Part shown: piece by piece, positions 37,425-59,396 of the stretch
Layout: every line of letters starts with the position of its first letter
How positions within the stretch are numbered: position 1 is the stretch's first letter
Source of the DNA: Acidobacteriota bacterium
GTDB lineage: Bacteria > Acidobacteriota > UBA6911 > JACQSX01
DNA: 64,000 nt
Direction of reading: 5' to 3'
Assembly (NCBI GenBank): GCA_036507075.1
Contig: DASXQR010000083.1
Coordinates: forward strand, 32,001 to 96,000
The notes under the pieces: generated by a model
Database searches by the model: none
The model's input: only the letters and a program-made list of their open reading frames with translations
Told to the model about the DNA's origin: nothing
Program-made: the position numbers and the translations under genes

Positions 37425-37439
37425 GCAATTTCTATACCA
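37425..37439 (-). promoter_or_regulatory. Sigma54 -24/-12 promoter
   Basis: TGGTATAGAAATTGC (GG-N10-GC) upstream of the hyp-decaheme-porin operon. Confidence 0.7.
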
Positions 37440-37634
37440 GGCATTTTTGTGCCATAGATCAGAATCAATCGGCGTAGTTCGCATAAATCGGCGCTAGTTC
37501 TTCGATTCGCGGGTCTTAAGATCCACAAGTGGGTCAAAAGGCGCACACAAATAGGGAGAATTTCAGGTCGCGGCCAACTCGCTTGAAAATGTCCAGGAGG
37601 CTTCGCACCCTCCGCGCCCTCGCGGTAGATTCTT

Positions 37635-38294
37635 TCACGCATGACAGGCGGCGGATTCTTCGCATGCCTGCTCAAGCAGATGGCGCGCCTCTTCATCCGT
37701 AACTACCGGAAGGTGCTCATACCATCGCTCCGCGCCGAACGAAACAGGCGGAATGACGGTAACGACTCCGTCAACGTCCGACCGAAACTCGTCCAGAGCA
37801 TCTTGGGAGATCACGGGCGCGGCCACAATCATCCGCGCCGGGGCGCGCTGGCGCAGTGCGGCGATTGCTGCGGCAATGCTCGAGCCATCCGTGAGCCCGT
37901 CATCGACCATTATCACGGTGCGGTCTGCTAGATTGAGCGGTTTTCGGTCGCCGCGGTAAAGTTTTTCACAACGCTCAATCTCCTTCAGTTCATGATTCGC
38001 CACCAAGTCAATCAAACCTTCGGATAACCTGAACATGTAAACGGTGTTGTTCAAAATCCGCGCACCTCCGGTGGCAACGGCACCGAATACAATTTCCTGA
38101 CATCCTGGAAGTCCAAGTTTGCGAACGAGGAAGAAGTCGAGCGGAAGTTCAAGCTTACGCGCCACTTCGTAACCGACAGGCACGCTTTCCGGCGTCAGCG
38201 TGATTGCGACCGCATCTGTGTAATTTATTTCCTGCTTTAGTTTGCGAGCTAGCTTCGTGCCCGCTTCGCGTCGATTGCGGAATTTTTCAGACAT
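37635..38294 (-). CDS. Phosphoribosyltransferase-like protein, divergent paralog
   Basis: FRNRREAG, VRKLGLP, VDDGLTDG. Confidence 0.85.
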   Translation of the reverse strand: MSEKFRNRREAGTKLARKLKQEINYTDAVAITLTPESVPVGYEVARKLELPLDFFLVRKLGLPGCQEIVFGAVATGGARILNNTVYMFRLSEGLIDLVANHELKEIERCEKLYRGDRKPLNLADRTVIMVDDGLTDGSSIAAAIAALRQRAPARMIVAAPVISQDALDEFRSDVDGVVTVIPPVSFGAERWYEHLPVVTDEEARHLLEQACEESAACHA

Positions 38295-38307
38295 GGAAAG
38301 CCTCCTT

Positions 38308-38811
38308 TCAATTTCGCGTCCACCAAACGTGGGCGAACTTGTTTTCGTGCGAAAACAGGTACACGACGTCGCCCCCGAAGCTCTTCTGAAGCGCTCCTCC
38401 CAGTCGTTGCGCCAGGTGTTCTGTGGTGGTGGCCACTGTCCACCCCAGCGGACCGGAAAGCTTCCAAGACATCACGCGCGCCAGCGGATTATCCTCCGAT
38501 GCCCTCTCTGCTTCATTTCGCAGCAACGTTTCAACTTCTGCACCATGATCGATCAAAAACATGCCCTGGACGTACAACAGTCCCGAAGGTGTTCCCGATT
38601 TCATTTGGTGGCATGCCGGGCAGACGGTTGCTTTCAGTTCCCGGTCCAGGTGCGGCGCGTGCCTCGCGGGGGTCCAGCGCTGAGCTGAGTAGACTGCCTG
38701 GCAGATCCTGCAAATCAGTGGTTCGCTCGGGTGGCGTACTGGTCTGAGCCCTTCCCCATGGTCCACTCGCTTGGTAAAAGTCGTGTTCGTGTATCGCTTG
38801 GCTGCGTTCAT
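38308..38811 (-). CDS. BCAM0308 family protein
   Basis: CRICQAVY..RW, CPAC, NPLARVM, TTEHLAQRLG. Confidence 0.8.
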   Translation of the reverse strand: MNAAKRYTNTTFTKRVDHGEGLRPVRHPSEPLICRICQAVYSAQRWTPARHAPHLDRELKATVCPACHQMKSGTPSGLLYVQGMFLIDHGAEVETLLRNEAERASEDNPLARVMSWKLSGPLGWTVATTTEHLAQRLGGALQKSFGGDVVYLFSHENKFAHVWWTRN

Positions 38812-38853
38812 AGTGTTGATCTCTCCCTGGCTTTTGACCTCCAGTGATTCGGT

Positions 38854-38869
38854 AGCACGAACCGTGCCC
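38854..38869 (-). promoter_or_regulatory. Sigma54 -24/-12 promoter
   Basis: GGGCACGGTTCGTGCT upstream of the BCAM0308-like gene. Confidence 0.6.
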
Positions 38870-38990
38870 TAAGTTTTCAGGTAAAATGTGAGGGAATCCA
38901 GCCGGTCAGTGGGTGTAATCGCGCATCTCTGGTTGGGAATGCGCAAGAACGGAGCGAACCCGCATCAGTTATTGAAGGCGGCTACGTTGT

Positions 38991-39138: not shown

Positions 39139-39888
39139 TCACGAAGACCGCACCGCAAGAACCAGCATGATGACGATACCGGCGGTGACCCACCAGGCGG
39201 CCTGCCGCGGTCCGCACGACCCGTCGTCCAGGGTTTCAGGCAGTAATTCGGCAAAGACCAGGAAGATCATAGCTCCTGCGGCAAAACCTAGTCCTGCCGG
39301 AAGAAGCGGCTGGAAGAAGGAGACTGCGATTACGGCGGGAACAGCGGCAAGAGGCTGGGGAAAACTGGAGAGCACTGCATAATAAGCGCAACGCGACACG
39401 GAAACTCCTTGCGCCCGAAGCGGGAGCGCGATCGCCATCCCTTCAGGAATATTGTGTACTGCGATGGCCAGGGTAATCAGCAGTCCAAATCCGAGCTCGC
39501 CGGTTGCGTAACTAACACCGATGGCGACTCCCTCCGGAAAACTATGAATCGCCATGGCAACGAAGACCAGGATTCCCTTGCGCGAAGCTTCGGCGCTCAG
39601 CCCGGATATTTTCCAGTGGTGACCCTGGAGGGTTCTTGCGGTAAATGACAGGAAGGCCGCTCCCGCCACGATTCCAACAGCCAGTTCCAAAGGGGATCCG
39701 CGTTTCAGCGCTTCTCCGGAAAGACCGAACACGGAAGCCGAAAGCATCATACCTCCCGCAAGGGCAGCAAAGCGCCCCTGCCACTGAGAGGAAGGATTCC
39801 TGACAAACACAAAGGGAAGAGCTCCCAAGCCGGTTGCCAGGTCGGTCAGGATCGCCGCAATGAGAGTCTGGACGATAAGGTCGTTCAT
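39139..39888 (-). CDS. ZIP family (ZupT/GufA-like) divalent metal transporter
   Basis: HSFPEG and HNIPEG motifs, FAAGAM, ELLPE. Confidence 0.92.
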   Translation of the reverse strand: MNDLIVQTLIAAILTDLATGLGALPFVFVRNPSSQWQGRFAALAGGMMLSASVFGLSGEALKRGSPLELAVGIVAGAAFLSFTARTLQGHHWKISGLSAEASRKGILVFVAMAIHSFPEGVAIGVSYATGELGFGLLITLAIAVHNIPEGMAIALPLRAQGVSVSRCAYYAVLSSFPQPLAAVPAVIAVSFFQPLLPAGLGFAAGAMIFLVFAELLPETLDDGSCGPRQAAWWVTAGIVIMLVLAVRSS

Positions 39889-39966: not shown

Positions 39967-40662
39967 TTACGCGACCGTGCCGAACAGGGAGCCGACAGCC
40001 GCCGTCAGCCCCATCGCAAGTGCACCCCAGAATGTCACGCGCACGGCGGCCGGCCTCACACGGGCACCATCGGTGCGAGCAGCCAGCCCTCCCAGGAGCG
40101 CAAGGAACATCAGCGAAGTTGCGGCCACGACAGGGACTAAGTTCACCAGGGGCGTCATGAAAACGGTTAGCAGGGGCATGGCCGCGCCGAGAGCGAATGT
40201 ACCTGCCGAGGCAAGCGCCGCCTGAACCGGCCGTGCATTGAGAGATTCATATATCCCCAGCTCATCGCGCGCGTGGGCGGCAATTGCGTCGTGAGCCATG
40301 AGTTGCTCAGCAACCTGTTTCGCGAGGGGCGGATCAAGGCCGCGATCGACGTAGATTGCTGCCAATTCCTCTCGCTCGTTCTCCTCGTCAGCATCGAGTT
40401 CCCTACGCTCTCGCTCGAGGTCGGCGTGTTCGGTGTCTGCCTGTGAGGAAACCGACACATACTCGCCTGCAGCCATGGACATTGCTCCAGCGACTAGACC
40501 TGCAACCCCGGCGACCAATACTTCACCACGAGTCGCATGAGCGGCCGCGACACCGACCACCAGGCTCGCAGTCGACACAATACCGTCGTTTGCACCCAGC
40601 ACCGCGGCCCGGAGCCAACCGATACGTTCTGTGCGGTGTTTCTCCTGGTGGTGTCTAAGCAT
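39967..40662 (-). CDS. VIT1/CCC1 family Fe/Mn transporter
   Basis: LRAAVLGANDG, SMAAGEYVSVSSQ, HARDELG. Confidence 0.93.
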   Translation of the reverse strand: MLRHHQEKHRTERIGWLRAAVLGANDGIVSTASLVVGVAAAHATRGEVLVAGVAGLVAGAMSMAAGEYVSVSSQADTEHADLERERRELDADEENEREELAAIYVDRGLDPPLAKQVAEQLMAHDAIAAHARDELGIYESLNARPVQAALASAGTFALGAAMPLLTVFMTPLVNLVPVVAATSLMFLALLGGLAARTDGARVRPAAVRVTFWGALAMGLTAAVGSLFGTVA

Positions 40663-40840
40663 TCTGTTTCTCCCGTGCGCAAATCCCGCAGATGATTCGA
40701 TCACCGCCCCCAAGAATGCGGTAGCAGATTCCGCTCCTGATTTCAATGACGTGTCGAGGAAACGGATCGTCTTTGAGTTGTCGACGGGTGTCTTCGGATG
40801 CGCAGAATACCTCCATCCAGCGAAACTCACCTGGCAATGA

Positions 40841-40855
40841 GCAACTTGCATACCA
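40841..40855 (-). promoter_or_regulatory. Sigma54 -24/-12 promoter
   Basis: TGGTATGCAAGTTGC upstream of VIT1. Confidence 0.65.
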
Positions 40856-40882
40856 AGCCGTCCGGAAGGAATGTCGGAAATG

Positions 40883-40897
40883 TGGAACACCAGTTGC
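40883..40897 (+). promoter_or_regulatory. Sigma54 -24/-12 promoter
   Basis: TGGAACACCAGTTGC upstream of the 40928 gene. Confidence 0.65.
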
Positions 40898-40927
40898 TTC
40901 AGATATGGATGAAAAGGGAGGTGGCTA

Positions 40928-41296
40928 ATGTTGAACCCTCAAGAAATCGAAGAACTGAATAATCGGCTACATCAGGCAGTGTGTAACATCTGTACCGACC
41001 ACAAGCCGGACGGAAGTTGCTGCTATCCCGACAGATCCAAGTCTCCCCTGTTTGCTCACGTTGAAAGGCTCGTTGATTTGGCACGCGAAGTTCACAGCGA
41101 CCGGATGAAGCCGTACGTGGAGCGGCTCCGCAGCGACGTCTGTACGGTCTGTAATGCGCCGCGCTGGCGCGGTAACTGTCAAGTGACCAGTGAAGGCCTC
41201 TGCGCTGTGGATGCCTATCTCCCGGTGATCATCGAAGAGATTGAGGCATTTCTTGCCGAGAAAGGCAAAAAAGAGAGTCAGGGCTCCAGTGGGTGA
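40928..41296 (+). CDS. Small Cys-rich protein with two internal VCxxC-containing repeats
   Basis: GGAGG RBS; AVCNIC...GSC and DVCTVC...GNC. Confidence 0.75.
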   Translation: MLNPQEIEELNNRLHQAVCNICTDHKPDGSCCYPDRSKSPLFAHVERLVDLAREVHSDRMKPYVERLRSDVCTVCNAPRWRGNCQVTSEGLCAVDAYLPVIIEEIEAFLAEKGKKESQGSSG

Positions 41297-41645
41297 TATT
41301 ACCCACAACGCTGGGTGGGAAACACCAGGAAGAGAAGCTTGGCAGGAGGCAATTTTGGTTTTATGAATCCAGCAACACTGATCGTCATTCACATCGTCGG
41401 CATATTGGGAATTTTCATTCTCGGTTACATGGTCGGCTCGCGGGATAGTTGAAGAAAATCGAAAAGCTTGAACCGCGAAGCCGCCGCGCGCGTCAGCAAG
41501 CGGACACTCGATGTGACACTTCAAATCAACGCGCAATGACCTGTCCTCCACTTTCAGACAAAACTGAAATTTATTTCATTGAGTGGTATTTGCTAGCTGG
41601 GAGTGTCCGCTTGCTCACGCGCGCGGCTCGGCTGGCGGCTGCGAT

Positions 41646-41719: not shown

Positions 41720-43090
41720 TTAATCCGGAATCTTGTACTTCCTAACCTTATATCTCAGCGTGTCGCGCGAGATGTGGAGCAGTTTGGCTGCGTTTGTCTT
41801 GTTGCCTCGTGCCATCTGCAGCGACTGCTGGATGAGCCGCTTTTCCACATCGTATAGAGAGGCGCCGCCCGGCGGAAGGCGCCACTCCCCATCCCCTTCT
41901 TCGCCCAGCGGGGCGTTGGCCAAAACGCGGATCGGAAACTGTTCTACATCGAGCTGGTCAGAGTCGGCCAGTATCATGGCGCGCTCGACTGCGTTCTTCA
42001 GTTCGCGAACATTCCCCGGCCAAGAGTACTCGGCCAGTATTTTCTCGGCGCTTCGGGTGAGACCCCGGATCGATTTCTTGAAGGTGCTATTGTAGTGAGC
42101 GATGAAGTGCTTTAAAAGCACAGGTATGTCTTCTTTGCGCTCGCGCAGCGGCGGCAGGCGAATCGGGACAATCGAAAGCCGGTAAAAGAGGTCTTCCCGA
42201 AACGCCTTCTTTCTTACCATCGATTCCAGTTCTCTGTTGGAAGCGGCGACGACGCGCACGTCAATAGGGATGTCCTTGACCCCTCCGATGCGGCGCAGCG
42301 ATCGATCTTCCAGGATCCGCAGCAGTTTTGACTGCAGATGAAGCGGGAGTTCTCCGATTTCATCCAGGAAAATCGTGCCGCCATCCGCCAGCTCGAACAG
42401 TCCCTTCTTGCTGGCTCGGGCGTCGGTGAAGGCTCCCTTCTCATGCCCGAACAGCTCGCTTTCCATCAGCGTCTCGGGAAGGGCCGCGCAGTTTTGAATC
42501 ACCAGCGGGTTGGAGGCGCGGCGGCTGTGATAATGCAATGCCCTGGCGGCAAGATCTTTTCCCGTTCCGCTCTCTCCCTCAATCAGAAGGGTGTGGGTCT
42601 CGCTTGCCGCCAGCTTCCTGATCAAATCTTTGGCCTTGCGAATCTCGGGTGAGTTACCGACGATGTTCTCAATCGAGTATTCCGACTTGATCTCCGAGGT
42701 GACGCGGCCTACCGCCGCTCTCAGGTGCTGCGCTTCGAGCGCGTTCTTCAGTGTGTTCTCGAGCCGCTCGAAGTTGATCGGTTTCTCCAGGAAATCAAAA
42801 GCTCCGAGCTGCAAGGCGCGCACGGCGTCCTCGACGGAACCATGCCCGGTAATCATCACAACGGGGAGGTCGGGCCACTGTTTTTTGATCTTGATGAGCA
42901 ATTCCAGGCCGCGCAGGTCAGGCAGGCGCATATCCAGTGTGAGACCATCGACGGGTTGTGCTTCCAAAGTCTGCAGAGCCGCAACGCCGCTTTCCGCCTC
43001 CAAAACGCCATAGCTCCACGATTCCAGTTTCTGCCGGAGCGACCAGCGCAAGAGCCGCTCGTCGTCAACAATCAATATTGTCTTTGCCAT
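41720..43090 (-). CDS. Sigma54-dependent response regulator (NtrC/AtoC/ZraR family)
   Basis: Receiver domain, [28 protein letters not shown], Fis-type HTH. Confidence 0.96.
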
Positions 43091-43094: not shown

Positions 43095-43772
43095 TTATCC
43101 CTTGACCAGAGTGATTTCAAATCCCTTCCGGCCGGGTAGCACTCGAATCGAGCCCTTCATAGCTGCCAGCCGGCGCGCCACAATGCACAAACCCAACCCG
43201 GCCCGGCCTGAAACGGTTGAGAAGAAGGGCCGGAACAGGTTTGAAACAACCTCTGGTTCCATCACGCGCCTTTTGTTCCGAATCTCTATTTGTACCTTAT
43301 TCCCTCCAGAGTTGACTCGTAACTGCACGGGTCCTCCACCATGCTCGACGCCGTTTTGCAGCAGCTCGAAAAGCACAGATTGCAACATTGCAGCGTCGCA
43401 TCGGAGCTGCAGAGATGCAGGAAGGCGCGACACTCGAATATTTTCTGCGCCATCGGGAAGCATTTCGCGGACCGCGTCCACCACAACGTCCAAGAAAACC
43501 GGTTCCATGTTAGGTGCCGGCTCAGTCGTAAAATCGAGAAACTGTTGCAAGACGCGGTCCACTTTCCGGATCTCCGCATCTATCTCGAAAGTGATCTCTC
43601 GGCCTTCGTTCGAGAAGTGTTCGGTATCCCGGAGCACTTCGACGGCCGCCTTGACTGCCGCAAGCGGACTGCGAATCTCATGAGCCAGTCCTGCTGCCAT
43701 TTCTCGGTCCACCAGCCGGGATTTGCGTGTTCTCTTCCTTCCAGCGGATAACGGGTCGACCCGTCCTCTCAT
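43095..43772 (-). CDS. Sensor-less histidine kinase (HisKA + degenerate HATPase)
   Basis: LAHEIRSPL, ELLQNG, LFRPFFST, GLGL; in-frame stop 4 codons upstream of ATG. Confidence 0.75.
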   Translation of the reverse strand: MRGRVDPLSAGRKRTRKSRLVDREMAAGLAHEIRSPLAAVKAAVEVLRDTEHFSNEGREITFEIDAEIRKVDRVLQQFLDFTTEPAPNMEPVFLDVVVDAVREMLPDGAENIRVSRLPASLQLRCDAAMLQSVLFELLQNGVEHGGGPVQLRVNSGGNKVQIEIRNKRRVMEPEVVSNLFRPFFSTVSGRAGLGLCIVARRLAAMKGSIRVLPGRKGFEITLVKG

Positions 43773-44050: not shown

Positions 44051-45295
44051 ATGAACACGGAAATGGTGACTTTTTACGAAATCAAGAACTACCTCCATTT
44101 CTCTGAGCTGGATATTGACACCCTTAAACAGCTCGGTCCCATGTTCCGTCCGCATTTGAAGGAAATGGCAGATCGTTTTTATGCGGAGATTCCTGACCAT
44201 CCGGATGCCTATAAGGTATTCAGCGGTCCTGCGCAAATTGAAAGGCTGAAGGAATCGCTGCAGGTGTGGGGCGCCGGTTTGTTCTCCGGAGATTACGGCG
44301 AGGATTACGCGCGGCAACGCTATCAGATCGGCTATACGCACGTGCGCATCCAGCTTGCGCAAAAATATGTCATCAGCGCCATGGCAGTAGTGCGCGAGTT
44401 CCTGCATGAAAAAATAAACGAGCAGGTCGATGACGCGCTCCTTCGCATGCAAGCTCATATCAGTATCGACAAAGTTCTGGATCTGGATCTGAACCTGATG
44501 TGCGAGGCCTACTTCGCAGCCAGCCTGCAGGCGCTGACCGATATCAACCGTCGGCTGGAAGAAATGAATCAGAAGCTGCGTGAATCCAGCCAGGTGAAAA
44601 GTGAATTCCTGGCCAGGACATCGCACGAATTGCGTACCCCTCTAAGCTCGATACTCGGTTTTATCCGGCTTGTGCTGGACGGCCTTTGTGAGACACGGGA
44701 AGAGGAAATGGATTTGCTTAACGATGCGTTTCAAGCCGCCGAGCATCTGCTTTCCATTGTCAACGACTTGCTGGACGTGGCGCGCATTGAAGCCGGCAAG
44801 CTGCAGGTTCAGGGCAGGCCTGTGGACCTTCGACCCATCCTGGACCAGGTTATTTCGCTGACTGCATTGCAGGCCCAGCAGAAAGGCATCAAGTTGTTAG
44901 ATGAAACGCACGATAAAGACCTGCCAAGAGTCTGGGCCGATCCGGAACGCTTGAAACAGGTAATCATCAACATTGTCGGAAATGCAGTTAAATTTACAGA
45001 CTATGGCTATGTAACCGTGCGTGCTCGATCGGATGATTCCTTCGTGCGTTTTGAAGTGATTGATACAGGGATTGGCATCGAAAGAGAGAGGCAGAGGGAG
45101 CTGTTCGAAAAATTCAAGCAGGTCGACAGTTCGCTGACACGCAGGCACGGCGGGAGCGGGTTGGGACTGGCCATCAGCAAGCATTTGATAGAAACAATGG
45201 GCGGAGCGATCGAATTGTATAGCGAGGGCTTAGGCCGCGGGACCCACCTGCACTTCACCGTTCCTGTTTGGCGAGAGCCTTCGGATGACAAATGA
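44051..45295 (+). CDS. Globin-coupled (protoglobin) sensor histidine kinase
   Basis: N-terminal globin (DRFY, IGYTHVRI), SHELRTPL, GNAVKFT, DTGIG, GSGLGL. Confidence 0.92.
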   Translation: MNTEMVTFYEIKNYLHFSELDIDTLKQLGPMFRPHLKEMADRFYAEIPDHPDAYKVFSGPAQIERLKESLQVWGAGLFSGDYGEDYARQRYQIGYTHVRIQLAQKYVISAMAVVREFLHEKINEQVDDALLRMQAHISIDKVLDLDLNLMCEAYFAASLQALTDINRRLEEMNQKLRESSQVKSEFLARTSHELRTPLSSILGFIRLVLDGLCETREEEMDLLNDAFQAAEHLLSIVNDLLDVARIEAGKLQVQGRPVDLRPILDQVISLTALQAQQKGIKLLDETHDKDLPRVWADPERLKQVIINIVGNAVKFTDYGYVTVRARSDDSFVRFEVIDTGIGIERERQRELFEKFKQVDSSLTRRHGGSGLGLAISKHLIETMGGAIELYSEGLGRGTHLHFTVPVWREPSDDK

Positions 45296-45702
45296 AAACA
45301 GTGCTGGTAGTCGAAGACAACCCGCTGATCCTGAAGTTCTATCGCATGGCTCTGGAGCGTCAGGGTGGATTTAGAGTGCGCACCACCGAGAATGTAAACG
45401 AGATAGTTACCCTGGCGCGGTCCAAGAGTGTGGACGCCGTGATTCTGGACATCTCGCTTTCCAATGCCGAGTATCAGGGTAAGAAAATCGATGGCATCCA
45501 AATCGCGAGGATCTTACGCGAGGATCCCGCGTCTGCTGATATTCCGATCCTGGTGATTACTGCGCATGCGATGGAAGGAGACCGCGAGCGCATTATTCTG
45601 GCCACCGGCGCCGACGATTATCTGCAGAAGCCGATCTACGACACACAGAAACTGGTGGCGAAAATCAATGAGTTGATCCGTTCGCGCAACGAGCAGCCTT
45701 AA
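45292..45702 (+). CDS. Single-domain response regulator
   Basis: VLVVEDN, ILDISL, ITAHAM, YLQKP. Confidence 0.93.
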   Translation: MKTVLVVEDNPLILKFYRMALERQGGFRVRTTENVNEIVTLARSKSVDAVILDISLSNAEYQGKKIDGIQIARILREDPASADIPILVITAHAMEGDRERIILATGADDYLQKPIYDTQKLVAKINELIRSRNEQP

Positions 45703-45902
45703 AGCACTCCACGCGAGTGTAAATCAAGGATGACGTAGGCAAGGTACAACACAAGCCCGGCGATGCCGCAAGTCAGGCCAAGTCCCAGGAACAGCGTGAC
45801 GGTGCGTGGCGTGAACCAGATCAGGGACACAACCATGGTGGCCAGGGCGATCGTGATCAGGATGGCTGAGATTTGCAAGGTAACGGCAGTTAAGGTTTTC
45901 AT
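45699..45902 (-). CDS. Small two-TM membrane protein
   Basis: Two hydrophobic helices; start overlaps stop of the tetraheme gene. Confidence 0.7.
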   Translation of the reverse strand: MKTLTAVTLQISAILITIALATMVVSLIWFTPRTVTLFLGLGLTCGIAGLVLYLAYVILDLHSRGVL

Positions 45903-46492
45903 CGGTTCTGCGCCTGTTTTTGCTCTGGATGCACCGGTCCGTGACATTGCAGGCAGTCGGTCTCTTTAGCGGCAATCTGCTTTTGCAGATCTGCGTCATG
46001 TTTCTCCAGAAAACGTCGAGATTCTCCGTGGCAGTGGAGGCAATTCTGGAAATTGTAGGTCCCGCGTAACTTAATGGGGAGCCCGTAAGTGCCGGTTTCG
46101 TACTTCCAAACATGCCGAATCCCCGCCATTTTCGCTTTCACGGGACCGAATACTGTGTAATCGGTATGGCACGAGTAGCACTGATTTTCGAGAATGAACC
46201 GATTCTGATAGTGCCTGGAAGCCAGCGTTTCGCTTTTGGGGTTTTTCAGGTCATTAATAAACGGCCCCATTACATGACATGAACCGCAGAACTCCGGGCT
46301 CTTGGCGTTCTCCATTGTCGTATGTGCGCCCAGCCACAGTGACAGTGTAGGAAACACCGCAACTCCAAATAGAAGAAGCCAGTGTCGCTCGGGCGAATTG
46401 GGCCTTTTTGCCACTCGCACCATCCCCACCAGAATCGCCAGCGAGACCAAGCCCACTACCAGAGAGATGGAATGCAGGTTGAGAGTAGTCAT
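45899..46492 (-). CDS. NapC/NirT family membrane-anchored tetraheme cytochrome c
   Basis: Two N-terminal TMs, PEFCGSCHVM, CYSCH, CLHCH, CLQCH. Confidence 0.88.
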   Translation of the reverse strand: MTTLNLHSISLVVGLVSLAILVGMVRVAKRPNSPERHWLLLFGVAVFPTLSLWLGAHTTMENAKSPEFCGSCHVMGPFINDLKNPKSETLASRHYQNRFILENQCYSCHTDYTVFGPVKAKMAGIRHVWKYETGTYGLPIKLRGTYNFQNCLHCHGESRRFLEKHDADLQKQIAAKETDCLQCHGPVHPEQKQAQNR

Positions 46493-46969
46493 AAGGAAAT
46501 GGCAGCAGTTTTCGGACCAGATTCTCACTGGCACTCGGTCTTTATTCGAAACGGCGGAGTTACTCGGCGGTTCTACCTGCTTCACAATCTGACGTCTGGG
46601 ATGATTATCTTCAGTTTCCCATTGCTGGCCAACGGTTAATGTAGTCTCTGGTCAGGGTTTCTTCACTACAGCGAAAAACTTCGCGCGCTCATGGGGCCAA
46701 TCGGGCACGGTCGCATGCGTTGGCCGCCGCGTTCTCCCGAGCGGGTCTTTTCGCGCAGAGTCTGGGTGAATTGCCAAAATGGACGGCTGTCAGGATTCAC
46801 TTTTCTGAAAGCTTTGGCCCCCTTGCCGGCTGGGCCGAGTGCCGAATTGCGAGTTTAGGTGCTTCCACACTCGTCGAGCACTGGCCGCCCATGGCTTCTA
46901 TCGCCCTCTGCGTTTTCCGCAATGCGCAATTACTCCCACTGGTGTGAGAAAACACGCGGTTTTTTTTGA

Positions 46970-50333: not shown

Positions 50334-51370
50334 TGTTCAGGACGATCAATATCCGCGCATTGGCAGTCGCTGCGCTGACAACACTTATTCTGGTGCTGAT
50401 GATCGTCGCCGGTTCGCGCAATCTTCAGAACTTCGACGCAGCGCTTGTCGGTTATCTGTTCGCCACGATTTTTGCGGTTTTTGGAATCACCTACCGATAT
50501 GCGGTCTGGCTGCAAAGACCCCCTACACGCTTGTACTGGCGCCGCGGTTGGCAACTGCTGTTTTCGCGGCATCTGGTCGGCGGCGTCAAAGCTATTATCC
50601 GAAGCATAACGACCGACTACATAGCACAGCGGTTCATCGCCAGAAGATCGTGGCCCCGGTGGGCGGTTCATTTTCTGCTCGCTTGGGGATGTATCATCGC
50701 GTTCGCGGTCACCTTTCCGCTTGTTTTCGGGTGGATTCATTTTGAGACTCTCCCAGGATCTCCGATTCAATATCGGACCTTCATCTTTGGGTTTCCAGCG
50801 ATGCGTTTCTATGTTCAATCGGTGCTGGCGTGGAACATATTCCACGCTCTCGACTGGGCGGCCGTGATGGTGGTTGCCGGCGTCGTTTTCGCCGTCAGAA
50901 GACGACTCGTCGACCCCGGCCTGCTTGCAACGCAGACATTTTCTCGTGACTGGCTGCCACTCATAATTCTGTTTGCGGTCTCGATCACGGGTCTTCTTCT
51001 GACGGCGAGCGCGATGTGGATGAAAGGGGCGCACTACAGCTTTCTGGCGCTGACGCACGAAATTACAGTGATTTTCTTCTTAATCTGGCTGCCCTTCGGG
51101 AAGTTCTTTCATATTTTCCAGCGCCCGGCTCAATTGGGAGTTTCCGTCTACAAGCAGGCAGGCAGTGATCTGCCTGCAGCACGGTGCGCGCGCTGCGGAA
51201 CAGAATACGCCTCAACCCTGCATGTGAACGATCTTAAACAAGTAACAAAAGAACTTGGGATGGATTACGAATATTCCTCAAACGACCATCATCTTGATCT
51301 CTGCCCTGCCTGCAAGAGGGCTCGCTATGCCGAGTCTCACATGCAGGCGAAGAGAGGGCAAGCGTTCTAA
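50333..51370 (+). CDS. NarI-like polytopic membrane protein with C-terminal CxxC...CxxC
   Basis: Multiple TMs, conserved His ([21 protein letters not shown]), CARC and CPAC. Confidence 0.75.
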
Positions 51371-51377
51371 ATCACTT

Positions 51378-53549
51378 ATGGCAAAACTGCCTCAGACCGG
51401 AGACGAATTAATCAAGATTTACGGACCCCACCTGAATTACCCGCGCAAGGAGTCGGGCGTCGCTTCCGATGTACCTGACCATCTGGTTCAAACTCATTGC
51501 TGCTTCTGCGGAATGCAGTGCGGTATCCAGCTCAAGGTTAAGGACAATCGCGTTGTCGGTTTTGAACCCTGGGAAGAATTCCCATTCAACGAGGGGCGGT
51601 TGTGCCCGAAAGGTGTGCAGCGTTATTTGCAGAACGAGCACCCGGACAGGCTGCTGCACCCGCTGATCCGCTCTGACGCGGGATTCCGGCCTGGAAGCTG
51701 GGACGAAGCGATGACAAAGACGGCGGCTGAAATCCGCCGCATCCAGGACAAATACGGCAAGAACGCTTTCGCGATGCTTTCCGGTGTGTCGCTGAATAAT
51801 GAGAAATCTTATCTGGTCGGCAAGTTTGCCCGCGTGGCACTGCAAACCGCCAATCTTGATTATAACGGCAGGCTCTGCATGGTGAGCGCAGGGGCGGGAA
51901 ACAAGAAAGCCTTCGGCATCGACCGCGCCGCCAACCCCTGGAGCGACTTGCTGCACAGTAATCTGATTTTCATCGCCGGCAGCAACGTGGGCGAGTGTTT
52001 TCCCACTTTGACCGATTACATCTGGAAGGCGCGCGATCGCGGCGCTCGTCTCATTGTTGTAGATCCGCGCGAGACCCCGGTAGCGCGCACCGCCGATCTT
52101 CATGTGGCGATCCGTCCGGGAAGAGACCTGGCCCTGATGAATGCAATCCTGAGCCTGCTTATTCAGTGGAACCGCCTGGACCACGAGTTCATCGCTCATC
52201 ACACCACCGGATTTGAAAGCGTGCGCCAGGCGGCCACTGAAATGAGCCTCTCGGACGCGGCTCACCTGTGCGGCGTTCCCGAGGGCCAGATAATCAAGGC
52301 TGCACAAATGTGGTCGGATGCCAAAAACTCCATCCTGCTGCATGCGCGCGGGATCGAACACCATACCAAGGGCGTGGACAACGTACTCAGTTGCATCAAC
52401 CTGGTCCTGGCAACCGGCCGGCTTGGACGTAAGGGATGCGGCTACGGAACGATCACCGGCCAGGGCAATGGACAGGGAGGCCGCGAGCACGGCCATAAGT
52501 GTGACCAGCTTCCTGGAAACCGCGACATAGAGAACCCCGAACACCGCAAATACATCTCTGACGTCTGGGGCATTCGGGAAGAAGACCTTCCGCGTAAGGG
52601 ACTGAGTGCGCAGGAAATCGTGGATGCGATACATAAAGGCGAGATCCGCGGCCTGCTCTCCATCTGTTTTAACCCGCTCGTATCGCTTCCCGACACCAGC
52701 CACACGCGCCAGGCACTGGAGAAACTCGAGTTCTATGCCGCAATCGACTTTTTCCTGAATGAGACGGCGCATCATGCCGACGTGGTTTTCCCGGGTTCGC
52801 TGCACGAGGAGGACGATGGCACCAGCACCAGCGCTGAGGCGCGCGTGATTCGCTGCCGTAAAGCCGTCGATCCTCCCGGTGAGGCGCGCCAGGATTGGAA
52901 GATTCTCTGCGAGATAGCCGATCGACTCGGCCGTGGAAAGCATTTTGATTACCAGTCATCGGAGCGGATTTTTGAGGAACTGAGAATCGCCTCGCGCGGC
53001 GGAACGGCAGATTATTACGGCATCACTTATGACAAGATTGAGAAAAACTACGGAGTCTTCTGGCCCTGTCCTTCGGAAGATCATCCCGGCACTCCGCGCC
53101 TGTTTGAGGACCGGCGCTCGTATCATCCGGACGGAAAGTTTCATTTTCAAGCCGTCCGTTACCGTCCATCGGCGGAAGAGACTGACGCCGAATTTCCGGT
53201 TGTTCTAACTACCGGCCGCGTAGTGTCGCAGTATCTCAGCGGAACGCAAACGCGTCGCATCGGGATGCTCGTAGATCAGTATCCTGAGCCCAGGCTGGAG
53301 ATACATCCTCATCTGGCGGCGCGCTATGGAATCGCCACGGGCGACTTGGTCAGAGTGACCAGCCGGCGCGGCAGCATGGAGCTGCCGGCCCTGGTCACAG
53401 AGACCATTCGAGCCGATACGGTCTTCATTCCATATCATTGGCCTGGAAAGCAGGCGGCCAATCAGTTGACGCAGCGCGCGCTCGATCCTGTTTCCAAAAT
53501 CCCTGAATTCAAGGTTTCCGCAGTCCGGTTGCAGAAGGTGGCGCGATGA
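51378..53549 (+). CDS. Molybdopterin oxidoreductase, Nas/Nap-like nitrate reductase catalytic subunit
   Basis: CCFCGMQC...LCPKG 4Fe-4S, RLCMVSA Mo-Cys, [25 protein letters not shown]; no Tat signal. Confidence 0.88.
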
Positions 53550-54112
53550 GCGAAGCGGAATTCTTCGTTGACCCGCAACGCTGCATCGGGTGCCACGCGT
53601 GCGAAACGGCATGTGCGGAATGCGGCACGCACAAAGGTCTGCCGATGATCCACGTCGACTATGTAGACCGGTCGAGATCGACACAGACCGTTCCAATGGT
53701 CTGCATGCATTGCGAAGACCCCGCCTGTGCTCAGGTATGTCCTGCGTACGCCATTCAAAAAACCGCCGATGGGGTAGTGCACTCAGCGACGACGCCGCGC
53801 TGCATCGGGTGCTCAAACTGCGTGCTCGCTTGTCCGTTTGGAGTACCGAAGTACATGGCAGGAATGGACCTGATGATGAAATGCGACATGTGTTATGACC
53901 GCACTTCGATAGGAAAGCGGCCGATGTGTGCGACGGTCTGTCCCACGGGCGCGCTCTGGTACGGTTCGCGTGAACAGCTTCAGAAGGAGCGCAGGAGCGT
54001 TCCAGTGAATCAGTTCCGGTTCGGCGGTCAGTTGGTACGTACAAGAGTTCATGTGATGGTCCACTCAGGCGAGACGCTGGTGCAGATAAAGGGAGTGAAT
54101 TTGCGAGGGTAG
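53546..54112 (+). CDS. 4Fe-4S dicluster protein (DmsB/NrfC-like)
   Basis: [44 protein letters not shown]. Confidence 0.93.
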
Positions 54113-54637
54113 GTGACGGATATGAGACCCCAATCGGTTGAGACTCCCAGGTCGGCGGAGCCCAAATGGAAAAATGATTTTCCGCTGGATTACGGCGAAG
54201 ATGAACACGTTAGTCGCCGCGAGTTTGCCAAGTTTCTGGTACTCACAAGTTTGGGTCTCTTTGTCGGAAATTGCTGGATTGCGTTAAAGCAATGGTTCGG
54301 CCCGTCGAAAGGCGGCTTTCCTCAAATACGGATTGCCGCATTGGATCAGATTCGCATTGGAGAAATGCTTCAGTTCCGATACCCCGATGAAAAGTCACCG
54401 GCCATTCTGATCAGGCTTTCGGAAACAGAACTAGTCGCCTATGGGCAGAAGTGCACCCACCTGTCCTGCGCGGTTTACTGGGAACCGGGGGATGGAAGGA
54501 TCGCCTGTCCCTGCCATCACGGCTTTTTCGATGTGCGCGATGGCCATGTTTTGGCCGGCCCGCCGCCCCGTTCCCTGCCGCGCATTCCGCTCAGAATCCA
54601 GGGAGCAGACATCTTTGCCACGGGAGTGGAAATATGA
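54113..54637 (+). CDS. Rieske 2Fe-2S protein with Tat-like anchor
   Basis: SRREF followed by TM; CTHLSC and CPCHHG. Confidence 0.92.
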   Translation: MTDMRPQSVETPRSAEPKWKNDFPLDYGEDEHVSRREFAKFLVLTSLGLFVGNCWIALKQWFGPSKGGFPQIRIAALDQIRIGEMLQFRYPDEKSPAILIRLSETELVAYGQKCTHLSCAVYWEPGDGRIACPCHHGFFDVRDGHVLAGPPPRSLPRIPLRIQGADIFATGVEI

Positions 54638-54864
54638 GTGATATTAAGGACGCGCAGAAGAACATTACTGCCCAGAAGCGCAATGCCATTCTGGCTGGAA
54701 TCATCAGCATTCTTTGCATATTCGTGATCGCCCAGGTGTGGTTGCTAACCGCCGCTCTGGAAGCTTACCTGGCTGGAAACCCGGACGTTGCCATACCTGC
54801 GGCACTGGTCGCGGCAGGTTGCTTTGCGCTTGCCGCAGGATTGCTTCGGTACCTGCCTGATTAG
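54634..54864 (+). CDS. Small two-TM membrane protein
   Basis: QVWLLTAALEAYLAG; overlaps Rieske stop. Confidence 0.75.
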   Translation: MSDIKDAQKNITAQKRNAILAGIISILCIFVIAQVWLLTAALEAYLAGNPDVAIPAALVAAGCFALAAGLLRYLPD

Positions 54865-54886
54865 CTAGTTGCTAATGAAGGTTGTG

Positions 54887-56065
54887 ATGAAAGACTCGAA
54901 CAGGAACTTGACGCTCTCCACGCTTGCCTTTGCTGTGACCTTTTCCTGTTGGGGCTTGATCGCTGCGCTGGCGCCTCTCTTCAAGACCTCATTCGGTTTG
55001 AGTGCGACACAGGTTGGAATAATGGTGGCGATACCGGTCCTTCTCGGGTCTGTAGGGAGGTTGGGCGCAGGGTGGCTTGCGGACCGTTTCGGAGCAAGAA
55101 GCGTTATGGCGTTCCTGCTGATTTTTGGAACGATCCCACCGCTTGCGCTGAGCTTTGTTCGTTCTTACGAAGCGGTCCTCTTCTGGGGTTTTTTCCTCGG
55201 CGCGGCGGGAACTTCGTTCCCCGTCGGAGTCGCGCTTGTGTCGCGTTGCTTCCCAAAGGAGCGGGCCGGGTTTGCCCTGGGTGTTTACGGGGCAGGTAAC
55301 ATCGGGCAGTCGATCGCCGTGTTTTTTGCGCCGGTGCTGGCGCGCGGCGTCGGTCCGGATTGGACTTTCCGGGCATTTGCGCTGCTATCGGCCCTCGGCG
55401 GGATGCTGGTCTGGCTCCTGATGAAAGAACCTGACCACGGTCGTCCTCAAATGAACTGGCGTGAAACGGCGGCTGTTTTTCGCGAGAGGAAAACCTTTAT
55501 TCTGAGTCTGTTCTATTTTTTGACTTTTGGCGGCTTTATCGCGCTTGGGATCTTTCTGCCCACATTGTTGCGTGAAATGTTCAGCCTTTCAGCCGCTGAC
55601 GCCGGCGCGCGAACCGCAGGGTTTGTGCTTGTCGCCACACTTGCGCGTCCTCTGGGTGGATGGCTCAGCGACAGTTGGGGAGGTCAGCGGATGCTCATGT
55701 TCGTCTTCGGAGGACTTGCAGCCATAGCGTGGTTGATGTTCAGTCACAACATAGTCCTTTTCACCTTTTCGGCCCTCGGCTCCGCCCTGTTGCTGGGCCT
55801 GGGCAATGGTGCCGTTTTTAAACTGGTGCCCGAGTACTTTCCGGTACGCACCGGCACGGTAACCGGCATCGTGGGCGCAACGGGTGGATTGGGCGGGTTC
55901 TTCCCACCACTGGTGCTGGGCATGTTCCGAGACCAGTTTGGAAGTTACGGCCCTGGATTTTTGCTGCTCAGTGCGTTCGCCGCGGCATGTCTGTTGATCA
56001 ACTGGACTGCAACATCAACACCGGCAAGGACCAGAAACATGGATCCGATGTCGGCGCGGCGATGA
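54887..56065 (+). CDS. narK: NarK/NasA family nitrate/nitrite MFS transporter
   Basis: GSVGRL..GWLADRFG, GAGNIG, YFLTFGGF, GNGAVFK, GGLGGFFPP. Confidence 0.9.
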   Translation: MKDSNRNLTLSTLAFAVTFSCWGLIAALAPLFKTSFGLSATQVGIMVAIPVLLGSVGRLGAGWLADRFGARSVMAFLLIFGTIPPLALSFVRSYEAVLFWGFFLGAAGTSFPVGVALVSRCFPKERAGFALGVYGAGNIGQSIAVFFAPVLARGVGPDWTFRAFALLSALGGMLVWLLMKEPDHGRPQMNWRETAAVFRERKTFILSLFYFLTFGGFIALGIFLPTLLREMFSLSAADAGARTAGFVLVATLARPLGGWLSDSWGGQRMLMFVFGGLAAIAWLMFSHNIVLFTFSALGSALLLGLGNGAVFKLVPEYFPVRTGTVTGIVGATGGLGGFFPPLVLGMFRDQFGSYGPGFLLLSAFAAACLLINWTATSTPARTRNMDPMSARR

Positions 56066-56375
56066 TTAGAACCACAATCATGGTGCTGGTAACCTGATCC
56101 CTCATCCTGCGTGGCCGCCGGCAGCCATCACCAGAGTTGGGATCGCATTCCTGGTGGGTAAGGCACCGGCAGCGGGCTTTCGGGGAAGCTCTTGCCAAAC
56201 GGGAGGAGCGTGGGCGGCATCAGTGATTCCATACGAGCATCATGCCCTCGATCAATGCCATTATTGCAATGCCGGCGGCGAAATGCGCTGAGGCGCGATC
56301 TGCCGCCGGTATTTTTTGAGAGAAGGCGGCCGGATGGAGAAAGTACTAAAGATTCTCCTCAGGTAAATCGTCATC

Positions 56376-56792
56376 TCAGAAGACGTGTTTCACGTTCTCG
56401 CCTTGAATCATTACCTCCTCGATTGTCGTCTCCTTTGCCGGATTGGTGCCAAACCGAACTTCGGTGGCCTTTGCTTTTATCTCCAGAGGCTGGACATGAC
56501 ACTTCAGTCTCGTGATCTCCTTGTCTGTGGGTTTCTCCCACCCGGCGTGACGGCGCTCAACGATCGGCTTAAAGATGATACTGTGGCTCTCACCGACCGA
56601 TTTGTGCTGAAGCTGATAGAGACCCGGTTGTAACAGGACTTCTCCTACGCGGACTGGCGAGCTGAAAGTGATCTCGCCCTTATTTCCCACGCGCACGGTC
56701 CCGGGCCGCTCGGCTAACAGTGGAATACAAAAGCTTCCCAGAAGAGTCATAAGCAAAGCCCCTTTTGAAAAGTATTTCTTTCCGTAATTCAT
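56376..56792 (-). CDS. Small exported beta-rich hypothetical protein
   Basis: Signal peptide, AGAGG RBS, GEITFSSPVRVG..LQPGLY. Confidence 0.7.
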   Translation of the reverse strand: MNYGKKYFSKGALLMTLLGSFCIPLLAERPGTVRVGNKGEITFSSPVRVGEVLLQPGLYQLQHKSVGESHSIIFKPIVERRHAGWEKPTDKEITRLKCHVQPLEIKAKATEVRFGTNPAKETTIEEVMIQGENVKHVF

Positions 56793-56842
56793 GAATCCTC
56801 TCTTTCCTTTCTGTGTATCACCTTGCTTCATCCGGATGAATA

Positions 56843-56857
56843 GCAATCGCGATGCCA
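56843..56857 (-). promoter_or_regulatory. Sigma54 -24/-12 promoter
   Basis: TGGCATCGCGATTGC. Confidence 0.7.
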
Positions 56858-56978
56858 GTTTGGTCCGCGGTTGTTTGCCCGGGAATTTCGGATAGAGGGT
56901 CTGGAGTGCCGAAGGAAAGTACTGCGTGAAATCGCGCATCACTGCGTGTTTTCCAGCAGGCACCCGAAAAGCGCGGCG

Positions 56979-59342
56979 TTAATACGGCCACTTCCAGTCG
57001 CGAATCTCAGGCATGTCGTCGCCGTATTTACAAATGTACTGCTTATGTTCGAGGAGCTTGTCACGCATGGCTTGCTTGACATAGGCAGCCTTTGAACCTA
57101 ACTTCGGTAGGCGCTCTATAACGTCTTCAACCAGGTGGAAGCGGTCGAGGTCGTTAAGAACCGTCATGTCAAACGGCGTCGTGGTCGTGCCCTCCTCTTT
57201 GTATCCACGCACGTGAAGGTTGCGGTGATTTGTGCGACGGTAGGCCAGCCGGTGAATCAACCAGGGATAACCATGAAAGGCGAACACGACAGGCCTGTCA
57301 GTTGTAAAGAGCGAATCGAAATCTTTGTCAGACAACCCGTGCGGATGCTCCCGCGCGGGTTGGAGTGTCATCAAATCGACGACGTTGACCACGCGAACCC
57401 GTAGTTCCGGAAAGCGGTGACGGAGGATATCCACCGCCGCAAGTGTTTCCAGCGTCGCAATGTCGCCGGCACACGCCATCACAACGTCCGGCTCTGCACC
57501 TTCGTCGTTGCTTGCCCATTTCCAAATGCCTATACCTGCGGTGCAGTGTTTGATGGCGGCATCCATATCGAGATATTGCAGCGCAGGTTGCTTGCCCGCC
57601 ACAATGACATTCACGTAGTGGCGGCTCCTCAGGCAATGGTCCGTCACGGAGAGGAGCGTGTTGGCGTCGGGCGGAAAATAGACACGAACGATTTCCGCCT
57701 TCTTGTTGACGACATGATCGATAAAGCCGGGATCCTGGTGGCTGAAGCCGTTGTGATCCTGCCGCCAGACATGCGAGGTGAGCAGATAGTTGAGAGAAGC
57801 AATCGGACGGCGCCACGGAATATGACGCGTCACTTTCAGCCACTTGGCATGCTGGTTGAACATGGAATCAACGATGTGAATAAACGCCTCGTAACAGGAG
57901 AAAAAGCCATGCCGACCGGTGAGCAGGTAACCTTCCAGCCAGCCCTGGCACATATGTTCGCTCAAGACCTCCATTACCCGCCCGTCAGGTGAGATATGGT
58001 CGTCGCCGGGCGAAATACTGCCGGTGAAAACTCGGTCGGTCACCTCAAACACTGCACCCAAGCGGTTTGAGGCTGTTTCGTCCGGGCCCATCAAGCGGAA
58101 ATTACGACTTTCGGCGTTACACTTGATAACGTCGCGAAGGAATCGTCCCATCACGCGTGTGGCTTCTGCCTCCAGGGTGCCTGGGTTCGGGACATCGACG
58201 GCGTAGTCGCGAAAATCCGGCAGCTTTAAATCCTTAAGGAGCAGCCCTCCATTGGCGTGGGGGTTGGCACCCATGCGAAGCCTTCCTCGGGGCGCAAGTT
58301 CTGCAAGCTCCGGCACAAGCCGCCCGTTTTCATCGAATAGTTCTTCGGGCTTGTAGCTGCGCATCCACTGTTCAAGCATCTTTAGATGTTCCGGCTTGCT
58401 TGCCAGCTCTGCCAGCGGAACCTGGTGGGAGCGGAACGAATTCTCTGTTGGCAAACCATCAACGATCTTTGGCCCGGTCCAACCTTTTGGCGTACGCAGC
58501 ACGATCATCGGCCACCGCTGACGGCGGAAGAAGCCATTGGTTCGGGCGTCTCTCTGAATTGCCTGGATCTCGGCGAGCACTGAGTCGAGTGTGTGCGCCA
58601 TGAGTTGATGCATCTTTTCCGGCTCGTTGCCCTCGACAAAGTATGGCGTGTAGCCATAACCGACAAAAAGGCTTGTCAGCTCTTCGTCGTTGAGCCGCGC
58701 CAGGAGGGTGGGATTGGCAATCTTGTAGCCATTCAAATGCAGAATGGGCAAAACGGCGCCGTCATGCACCGGATTGAGGAACTTGTTGGAATGCCAGCTC
58801 GCGGCCAGGGGGCCTGTCTCCGCTTCACCGTCGCCGATGACGCAAGCTGCCAGTAAGTCGGGATTGTCGAACACGGCACCGTAGGCGTGAACCAGCGCGT
58901 AACCAAGTTCGCCACCTTCATGGATTGATCCGGGGGTTTCCGGTGCCACGTGGCTCGGAATGCCGCCGGGGAATGAAAACTGTGTAAAAAGCTTTTTCAG
59001 CCCCTCGGTATCCTGCGAGATGCTGGGATAAACCTCGCTGTATGTTCCCTCCAGGTAAGTGTTGGCGACCAGACCGGGGCCGCCATGGCCCGGGCCGGTG
59101 ATGTAGAGAACATTCAGATCATGCGCCTTAATCAGGCGATTAAGATGCGCGTAAATGAAATTAAGCCCCGGCGTCGTCCCCCAGTGGCCAAGCAGTCTCG
59201 GCTTGATGTGGCAAAGCTCCAGGGGCTTACGCAGCAGAGGATTGTCGTACAGGTAAATTTGACCAACCGAAAGATAATTCGCCGCTCGCCAGTAGGCATT
59301 TATCTTCCGTACTTCCTCTGCAGTTAAGGGTGTTTCTTTCAT
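56979..59342 (-). CDS. xfp: Xylulose-5-phosphate/fructose-6-phosphate phosphoketolase
   Basis: [46 protein letters not shown]. Confidence 0.97.
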
Positions 59343-59381
59343 CTCACGATAACGCTCTGCTGGAGCCGATGTAAATCTTAC

Positions 59382-59396
59382 GCAACTTTCCTGCCA
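59382..59396 (-). promoter_or_regulatory. Sigma54 -24/-12 promoter
   Basis: TGGCAGGAAAGTTGC upstream of xfp. Confidence 0.65.

Follow-up and report, generated by a model that had tools for sequence, protein, structure and literature searches.

The 64-kb window analysed here (positions 32,001 to 96,000 of contig DASXQR010000083.1, or C83) is part of an Acidobacteriota genome of 6.1 Mb in 233 contigs (~96% complete assembly), and a 26-kb stretch of it is the densest cluster of sigma54 promoter motifs in that genome. The best explanation overall, to which we give a probability of about one half, is a clustered sigma54 regulon that is run by a locally encoded activator, fed through a four-step relay by a globin-coupled histidine kinase, and switched on at low oxygen. 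An earlier note on this DNA had proposed a self-contained O2-sensing circuit. The clustered motifs, the presence of rpoN, a protoglobin kinase with its heme ligands, a central activator and a dyad common to the promoters all speak for that proposal, but its wiring and its core were incomplete. Computation recovers the motifs, the dyad and its concentration at the locus, a conserved core of four genes, the heme ligands and four phospho-acceptor residues, one in each core protein.

Sigma54 sites were scored against a general 17-nt consensus, YTGGCACR-N4-TTGCW, with GG and GC fixed. Mismatch counts were used because a self-trained matrix, since dropped, drifted onto an intergenic heptamer repeat. 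Heptamer tandem repeats with GGAATGC-like units occupy intergenic DNA at 1947-2108, 7978-8009, 12712-12893 and 30392-30416, and have hundreds of copies genome-wide. All nine -24/-12 motifs listed in the earlier note were found again, with zero to two mismatches to TGGCAC-N5-TTGC, together with a tenth that it had overlooked (49575..49591, minus strand, one mismatch). Its impression that the left half holds nothing of similar quality was correct: between 1 and 33.9 kb, 4,073 bases are non-coding, and they contain no site with at most two mismatches and a single one with at most three. The comparison with shuffled intergenic DNA that it had called for also came out in its favour: in 4,671 hand-curated non-coding bases of 37.4-59.5 kb there are six sites with at most two mismatches (mean 0.33 in 1000 approximate dinucleotide shuffles) and 11 with at most three (mean 1.8), and 0 of 1000 shuffles reach either count. 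Genome-wide, non-coding DNA was set by our own self-trained gene caller and counted in overlapping 22-kb windows. The region then has five non-coding sites with at most two mismatches, where 0.56 are expected and the maximum in 1,329 other windows is three. With at most three mismatches it has ten, and the runner-up window nine, in 2.6 times more non-coding DNA.

The motifs had been said to face transcription units. This is true of seven of the nine, whose GC lies 24-179 nt before a start codon: 37424..37440 on the minus strand (31 nt before the gene beginning at 37394), 38854..38870, minus, or from 38855 when scored as a 15-mer (44 nt before 38811), 40840..40856, minus (179 nt before a VIT gene), 40882..40898, plus (31 nt before 40928), 49863..49879, plus (24 nt before a hemerythrin gene), 56842..56858, minus (51 nt before 56792) and 59381..59397, minus (40 nt before xfp). 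It is not true of the two sites given there as 46970 and 47073, namely the doubtful motif at 46969..46985 (minus) and a perfect one at 47072..47088 (plus). One further match, at 46504..46520 (minus), is weak and uncertain, and stands 13 nt before the start of a tetraheme cytochrome gene. We class the sites as putative sigma54 promoters on the strength of a non-coding GG-N10-GC core in TGGCAC/TTGC-like context facing a gene, the one rpoN of the genome and an upstream dyad pair at six of the nine. Neither the operon of kinase and receiver nor that of the activator has a sigma54 site of its own in this genome.

Since the genome encodes 21 full sigma54-activator domains, proximity alone says little about which activator serves these promoters, and whether the regulon is locally controlled had to be judged by an activator-specific site shared among them. 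The candidate is a newly defined 16-bp palindrome, TG(G/C)G-N2-WWWW-N2-C(C/G)CA, mostly doubled at a spacing of 20-21 bp. Counting palindromes and 7-mers in the window promoters alone gave nothing convincing. In related loci, 22 sigma54-like sites were listed and 14 kept, the other eight being judged intragenic, unlikely, or divergent partners of a region already included; de novo palindromic Gibbs sampling of these 14 relatives-only promoters returned the 16-bp dyad with a score of 193, against 149-158 in shuffles. Applied to the window's own genome, in a test that was only partly blind, the relatives-only matrix placed a pair scoring at least 10 within 250 bp upstream of 7/11 sites in the region (six distinct pairs, as 49575 and 49863 count a common one) and of 4/378 other non-coding sites, one of these four being a contig-edge artefact. 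Among the 11, site 56842, whose gene our caller had over-extended, was set to non-coding by hand. At a score of at least 12 the counts are 5/11 and 1/378, the latter again the contig-edge artefact (Fisher p 4e-8). After refinement of the matrix on 13 pairs from relatives, ranks one to four of 10,360 sigma54-like sites all go to promoters of the region, as do ranks one to five of the sites labelled non-coding. Of the genome's 26 exact dyads, a pattern partly chosen by eye, six fall in the region. Because the top-ranked paired promoters and the dyads concentrate there, the regulon appears confined to the locus, as far as an assembly that is 96% complete can show. Among 13 new module loci, pairs scoring at least 12 were found at 3/83 sigma54-like sites, compared with 4/591 in 117 unrelated kinase loci.

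The six named sites with a pair above them are 37424 (37510..37545, 20-bp spacing, 69 bp above the site, score 17.1), 38854 (38889..38925, 21-bp spacing, score 16.9, unusually near at only 18 bp from the -24 box), 47072 (46923..46958, 113 bp above, score 11.8), 49863 (49736..49771, 91 bp above, score 16.7, used jointly with 49575), 56842 (56923..56958, 64 bp above, the highest-scoring promoter of the genome) and 59381 (59453..59488, 55 bp above, score 10.3). Four of them (37424, 47072, 56842 and 59381) face genes or DNA without promoters in the training set. Another pair, at 46742..46778 (21-bp spacing, score 19.2), lies upstream of the tetraheme cytochrome gene, whose promoter is not securely identified. 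The window's best dyad is a perfect single one at 41290..41305 (score 18.7), which may act as a distant site for 40840 on the minus strand, 434 bp away. A single dyad at 44014-44050 (score 10.2) adjoins an extended -10-like element just 5' of the globin kinase start, where the leader is very short and the ribosome-binding site not clear; this arrangement would make autoregulation of a sigma70 promoter possible. Candidates for distal regulon members were rejected: in a second cytochrome cluster on contig C39 no pair above a sigma54 site scores more than 4.7, and the other phosphoribosyltransferase genes did not rank. That cluster (16.3-21.7 kb of C39) comprises a decaheme-like match, in a frame skipped by our gene finder, a large barrel-like gene, a cytochrome c and a NapC-like protein, and has no dyad pair.

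The protein predicted to bind these pairs is the NtrC-type activator at 41720..43090 (minus strand), in which domain search and alignment identify the parts of an enhancer-binding protein: a receiver domain (REC, Asp53), an AAA+ domain with a GAFTGA-type loop, here GAFTDA, and a Fis-type HTH with the helix ISRDTLRY. The loop is invariant in 9/9 aligned orthologues, and this variant is listed as activity-preserving (PMC4641369). A quick tree was built from 40 AAA+-HTH regions, leaving out three of the genome's 21 activators that had no Walker A match; in it the local activator and 20 relatives form one clade (21 rows, SH-aLRT 97). The clade carries the helix ISRD(T/A/R)LR(Y/W), and the local activator is its sole bearer in this genome. 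A sigma54 site with a dyad pair stands beside clade activators in G002, L018, L023, L084, L085 and G219, all in the training of the refined matrix, and also in G004, G006 and G322, which were outside it. In G219 (L166, 9880-13088) and G322 (L167, 10119-12679) the system takes a two-gene form, with the globin kinase directly upstream of the clade activator and a universal stress protein (USP) gene following. On these grounds we regard a regulon under one shared activator as highly probable.

The proposed sensor is encoded at 44051..45295 (plus strand). A protoglobin domain (PF11563, E 3.7e-34) with distal Tyr44 and proximal His97 is fused to a HisKA-HATPase core with phospho-His192, the core being best scored by BarA-type hybrid kinase models. 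It is the only protoglobin gene found in the genome, and its closest relatives are from Acidobacteria/Acidobacteriota. Tyr44, His97 and His192 are present in 120/120 homologues, and the distance from the last globin tyrosine to the phospho-histidine is 38 residues in 114 of the 120, the other six being unmatched by the pattern; in the two-gene form of G322 it is 32 residues, counted by eye. The gene is followed by one for a single-domain receiver (45292..45702, plus strand, PF00072, Asp53) with a highly conserved surface. In 24 related loci this lone receiver (at least 50% identity) is present in 20, the four loci without it all being cut off there by a contig edge, and the clade activator in 16, the other eight being seven contig-edge cases and one, L089, with an activator of another clade. 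The module is patchy, with a full-length orthologue in 2/40 relatives and the sensor part (E<=1e-25) in 4/401 genomes of the phylum, and 362 database proteins match the sensor part. The kinase operon of G001 and G002 carries its own sigma54 site below a dyad. Taken together, this makes the globin a probable input to the regulon. A different arrangement occurs in L018-L023 and L037, where a globin kinase with a C-terminal receiver precedes two further receiver-like proteins and the second kinase is a stub of ~105 residues.

The core that the earlier note described had three parts, and here it fell short, omitting a fourth component at 43095-43772 that is co-transcribed with the activator. This protein (43095..43772, minus strand, with a start at 43772 or 43700) is a sensorless DHp+CA protein with a conserved histidine and altered N, G1 and G2 boxes; its model has a kinase-core fold (pLDDT 85.9) and matches the ZraS core best (TM 0.81). 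The slot upstream of the activator is filled in three ways across loci: in seven by an intact membrane kinase whose boxes are canonical (a HAMP match in two of the three scanned), in nine by a HAMP-like + DHp stub of ~105 residues without an ATP domain, and in the window, G001 and G002 by the sensorless DHp+CA form. The histidine is conserved in 14/14 aligned slot proteins, and the CA fold appears intact in the window's model. In the DHp-only form the acidic residue after the histidine is lost and the Asn at +4, the usual phosphatase residue, is kept. We predict that 43095 is likely a phosphotransferase, and the phosphodonor of the activator; direct transfer from the 44051 kinase to the 41720 receiver is therefore not the expected route.

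The mechanism that we favour would run as follows. Phosphate would pass from His192 of the globin kinase to Asp53 of the 45292 receiver, from there to the histidine of 43095 and finally to Asp53 of 41720; the activator would then bind TG(G/C)G-N8-C(C/G)CA pairs at a spacing of two helical turns and open the promoters below them. We prefer a relay because it is the sole wiring that works for all three forms of the second protein, and hold its exact His-Asp-His-Asp order as a tentative proposal. A low-oxygen output through such a relay means that the kinase must be active without O2, so that it would be net active with deoxy heme. The outputs would include nitrate reductase with NarK, a decaheme-barrel conduit and a tetraheme quinol cytochrome as alternative electron sinks, and further hemerythrin, metal transport and phosphoketolase. 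In its fullest form, which remains doubtful, this would be an undescribed O2-sensing phosphorelay of uncultured Acidobacteriota, leading from a deoxy-activated globin kinase through a phosphotransferase to a sigma54 activator that switches the cell to nitrate reduction and porin-cytochrome electron export via the new tandem dyad. The phosphotransferase would have arisen by two separate routes of decay of the activator's membrane kinase, from the intact enzyme either to an eroded ATP site or to the 105-residue HAMP-DHp stub.

The genes behind these promoters give the circuit its presumed meaning. Leftmost is a cytochrome operon on the minus strand, led by a conserved Cys-containing hypothetical protein without a Pfam family (37029..37394), followed by a decaheme c-type cytochrome of the DmsE/MtrA family (36004..37032; TIGR03508 213.6 bits, cut-off 192.2; 10 CxxCH) and a 671-residue signal-peptide protein (33979..35994; weak Porin_4 match below cut-off). 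The last is the predicted outer-membrane beta-barrel partner of the cytochrome, and a distant homologue of it adjoins a decaheme gene in module locus L085. Also on the minus strand are a phosphoribosyltransferase-like protein (37635..38294, PF00156), a BCAM0308 family protein (38308..38811; NF040826 105 bits, cut-off 100), a ZIP-family metal transporter (39139..39888, PF02535) and a VIT1-family Fe/Mn transporter (39967..40662, PF01988); a Cys-rich hypothetical protein of 122 residues without a family (40928..41296) lies on the plus strand. The two small Cys-rich proteins, 37029 and 40928, recur near the module in relatives (homologues of the former beside it in 5/28 loci by tblastn, of the latter in the G001 and G002 loci) and are candidate metal or Fe-S proteins; ESM Atlas returned only unnamed clusters for both. 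A tetraheme NapC/NirT-like cytochrome (45899-46492, PF03264, 4 CxxCH) and a small membrane protein (45699-45902) form a unit at 45699..46492 (minus strand), a pair that recurs in L065. On the plus strand, an operon at 49902..56065 encodes hemerythrin, a membrane protein, a Nas-like molybdoenzyme with an RLCM motif (NasC 846 bits, below the cut-off of 1100), a 4Fe-4S protein, a Rieske protein, DUF6755 and NarK (222 bits, below 312). It is preceded by an NhaA-like antiporter (48371..49519, plus strand, PF06965) whose membership in the regulon is unclear. The minus strand closes the region with a secreted hypothetical protein (56376..56792; weak DUF2911 match below cut-off) and the phosphoketolase Xfp (56979..59342; NF003619 above cut-off). 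Co-control of this cargo, as the earlier note had envisaged it, agrees with the dyad pairs at the electron-transfer, nitrate and xfp promoters, but no pair was found within 250 bp of the sites listed as 40841, 40883 and 46970, and 47073 faces no gene. Cargo near the relatives' modules includes USPs, hemerythrins, RIC, PFOR and multiheme and b-type cytochromes; that of G002 includes RIC and a ferritin-like protein. We favour a low-oxygen reading, unproven as it is, because relatives swap cargo yet keep the theme, and consider activation at low O2 rather likely, with the polarity read from gene content only.

Several observations weigh against this reading or parts of it. Over the whole 64-kb window the loose sigma54 pattern is unenriched (88 matches against 76.9 +/- 8.8, with 14/100 shuffles reaching 88). 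Three sites are ill placed: 46969 is separated from its gene by 478 nt, 47072 from the next gene by 1,284 nt that include repeats and a relic duplication, and 49575 is directed antisense into nhaA. Of the nine named sites, three (40840, 40882 and 46969) have no dyad pair within 250 bp. The dyad test is only partly blind because the pair spacing of 20-22 bp was picked by eye after viewing the window and its relatives, the dyad itself was seen before the Gibbs run and part of the training promoters are orthologous to window promoters. In G004 and G006, clade activators are paired with PAS or V4R kinases and no globin, again beside USPs, so the dyad marks the activator and not the gas. As to the relay, 43095 may still autophosphorylate (Asn for Asp in the G1 box is seen in some active kinases), and the alpha-1 surface of the lone receiver, judged by eye, departs from that of the activator receiver at several positions, which does not speak for a shared DHp. 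As to the sign, the closest characterised sensor points the other way. The globin domain of AfGcHK (Anaeromyxobacter sp. Fw109-5; PDB 5ohe) matches that of 44051 with E 1.2e-16, and Tyr44 and His97 correspond in the alignment to its O2-recognising Tyr45 and proximal His99; AfGcHK is ON in the O2-bound form, its deoxy Fe(II) form being inactive (PMC8697598), and this polarity in a plain relay would turn the regulon on when O2 is present. The tyrosine-to-phospho-histidine distance is 38 residues in 44051 and 26 in AfGcHK, for which reason the polarity of the latter is not transferable; linker changes are able to invert kinase output (PMC11164954), and a linker 12 residues longer makes the opposite sign possible.

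The main rival, which we consider possible though unlikely, keeps the regulon and inverts the wiring. A globin kinase that is ON with O2 would phosphorylate the lone receiver, which would shut off the 43095 kinase or make it a phosphatase of the activator, and low O2 would release this brake; where 43095 cannot use ATP, acetyl phosphate, a product of the co-regulated phosphoketolase, would charge the activator. Such a scheme would reconcile AfGcHK polarity with low-oxygen cargo. It also has a precedent in the Myxococcus xanthus system NmpRSTU, where the second kinase is silenced by REC phosphorylation (PMC6211767), and it would fit both the strong conservation of the receiver surface and a DHp-only form that lacks the acidic residue after the histidine and keeps Asn at +4. 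That same form, found in nine loci, is unable to autophosphorylate and would need a separate phosphodonor, and none of our analyses supports binding between the receiver and 43095.

More unlikely is the same regulon under another signal or sign, with the globin sensing NO, CO or heme redox state, or turning the system on upon the arrival of O2 to protect a largely anaerobic cell. AfGcHK is active as Fe(III), Fe(II)-O2 and Fe(II)-CO (PMC8697598), and hemerythrin and VIT, together with the RIC and ferritin-like protein of G002, would suit O2 or NO stress. Yet BCAM0308, USPs, NarK with nitrate reductase, PFOR and multiheme conduits are typical low-oxygen cargo, and the lxa locus, namesake of BCAM0308, is induced by low O2 (PMC3721108, the main text of which does not mention BCAM0308 by name). 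It is improbable that two unlinked circuits merely lie side by side, 43095 and 41720 running the regulon on another input while the globin kinase and its receiver control, for example, motility or c-di-GMP. The kinase and activator operons are divergent, clade activators work with non-globin kinases in G004 and G006, and the globin kinase of L089 neighbours an activator of another clade; set against this, the clade activator accompanies the globin kinase in 16/24 loci with seven of the remaining eight cut by contig edges, 43095 has no sensor domain of its own, and the G001/G002 kinase operon places a sigma54 site below the dyad. Finally, a reading of the motifs as chance matches or as sites of several different activators, to which the 21 activators of the genome, the unenriched window and the bad placement of 46969, 47072 and 49575 might point, is largely refuted by the non-coding enrichment and the one common dyad confined to the locus, and is very improbable.

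Some features of the region lie outside the argument for a globin-driven sigma54 regulon. The perfect motif 47072 faces repeats and, at 47465..47683 (plus strand), a relic in which an 84% copy of the 49608-49776 promoter region, including its dyad pair, is fused to the 3' end of narK in a 92% copy, much as deletion of a duplicate of the entire nitrate operon would leave it. A small RNA below this motif was considered and dropped, Rfam giving no match at gathering score. Short dispersed REP/MITE-like repeat families with many genomic copies occupy 38973-39105, 41575-41716, 43865-44019 and 47114-47446, and one such repeat fills the gap between the signalling operons, a place taken in G001 and G002 by a sigma54 promoter and an SRPBCC-like gene. 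A tRNA-Phe gene at 59520-59595 forms the right border of the regulon; an integrated island at this tRNA was rejected, a repeat of the tRNA 3' end not being found on the contig. Outside the regulon, the window holds a second phosphoribosyltransferase-like gene with a dienelactone hydrolase-like gene (6273-7910) and an erythromycin-esterase-family gene (20236-21579, PF05139, far below Ere cut-offs). Families like these are known from hypoxia loci.

Soils, peat and groundwater with changing oxygen harbour Acidobacteriota in abundance. For this phylum, the locus supplies a defined sensor, an activator, a predicted binding motif and a target list, all open to reconstruction in E. coli or in vitro. 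It is also a natural case in which to ask if the length of the linker sets the sign of a globin kinase, and provides a series of graded forms along which a kinase may become a phosphotransferase. Moreover, the motif lets genes linked to low O2, several of them of unknown function, be called from metagenomes.

Among known systems, the likeness to hypoxia loci is one of content. As in Burkholderia lxa (PMC3721108) and mycobacterial DosR, clustered cargo is accompanied by local regulators, with BCAM0308 here and USPs in relatives. The earlier note had cited lxa as a precedent, which holds for the cargo but not for the mechanism: lxa is under Anr/Fnr-type control through a TGA-N6-TCA motif (PMC3721108), whereas FNR boxes of the TTGAT-N4-ATCAA type are unenriched in the window (29 against 25.1). 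The phosphoribosyltransferase and NarK genes of the window may also have counterparts in the DosR regulon. The preferred relay has a demonstrated parallel in Pak-SdrG-PhyT-PhyR of Sphingomonas melonis, which passes from kinase to lone receiver to degenerate kinase to regulator (PMC5898713). Like that system, ChpT and Spo0B, ours combines a kinase, a lone receiver, a predicted kinase-derived phosphotransferase with an apparently degenerate ATPase domain and an output regulator. It differs from the former in using HisKA rather than HWE/HisKA_2 and a sigma54 activator as output, its transfer steps are predicted only, and the 43095 model is nearest to ordinary kinase cores.

The closest known circuit is NmpRSTU (PMC6211767, PMC11841059). 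Literature searches for such a system in Acidobacteriota brought up only the NmpRSTU papers as relevant, in whose main texts 'Acidobacteri' does not occur (the search covered the main texts and not supplements such as S2 Fig of PMC6211767, which deals with the distribution of nmpSTU), and found no O2 regulon described for the phylum. At the head of both circuits stands a protoglobin histidine kinase; each further has a free-standing receiver, another protein of kinase type and an NtrC-like sigma54 activator whose upstream sites come in pairs, and they share hemerythrin, USPs (here in relatives) and a proposed low-oxygen output. The differences begin with the second protein: instead of the REC-HisKA-CA hybrid NmpS, 43095 has no receiver, nor does any of the 14 aligned slot proteins, and its ATP domain is eroded or, in relatives, missing. 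The lone receiver protein has one receiver domain where NmpT has two. The binding site is TG(G/C)G-N8-C(C/G)CA at 20-21 bp rather than GCGCA-N5-TGCGC, of which the window has no exact match and no enrichment (68 against 71.5); a near match at 47172 was set aside, as it sits in a genome-wide repeat. The cargo is nitrate reduction, multiheme cytochromes and Xfp instead of cbb3 and HemN, and sigma54 autoregulation is absent from this genome. What is novel here is the tandem dyad as activator site together with the four-part globin-kinase core, in a circuit that overall resembles NmpRSTU.

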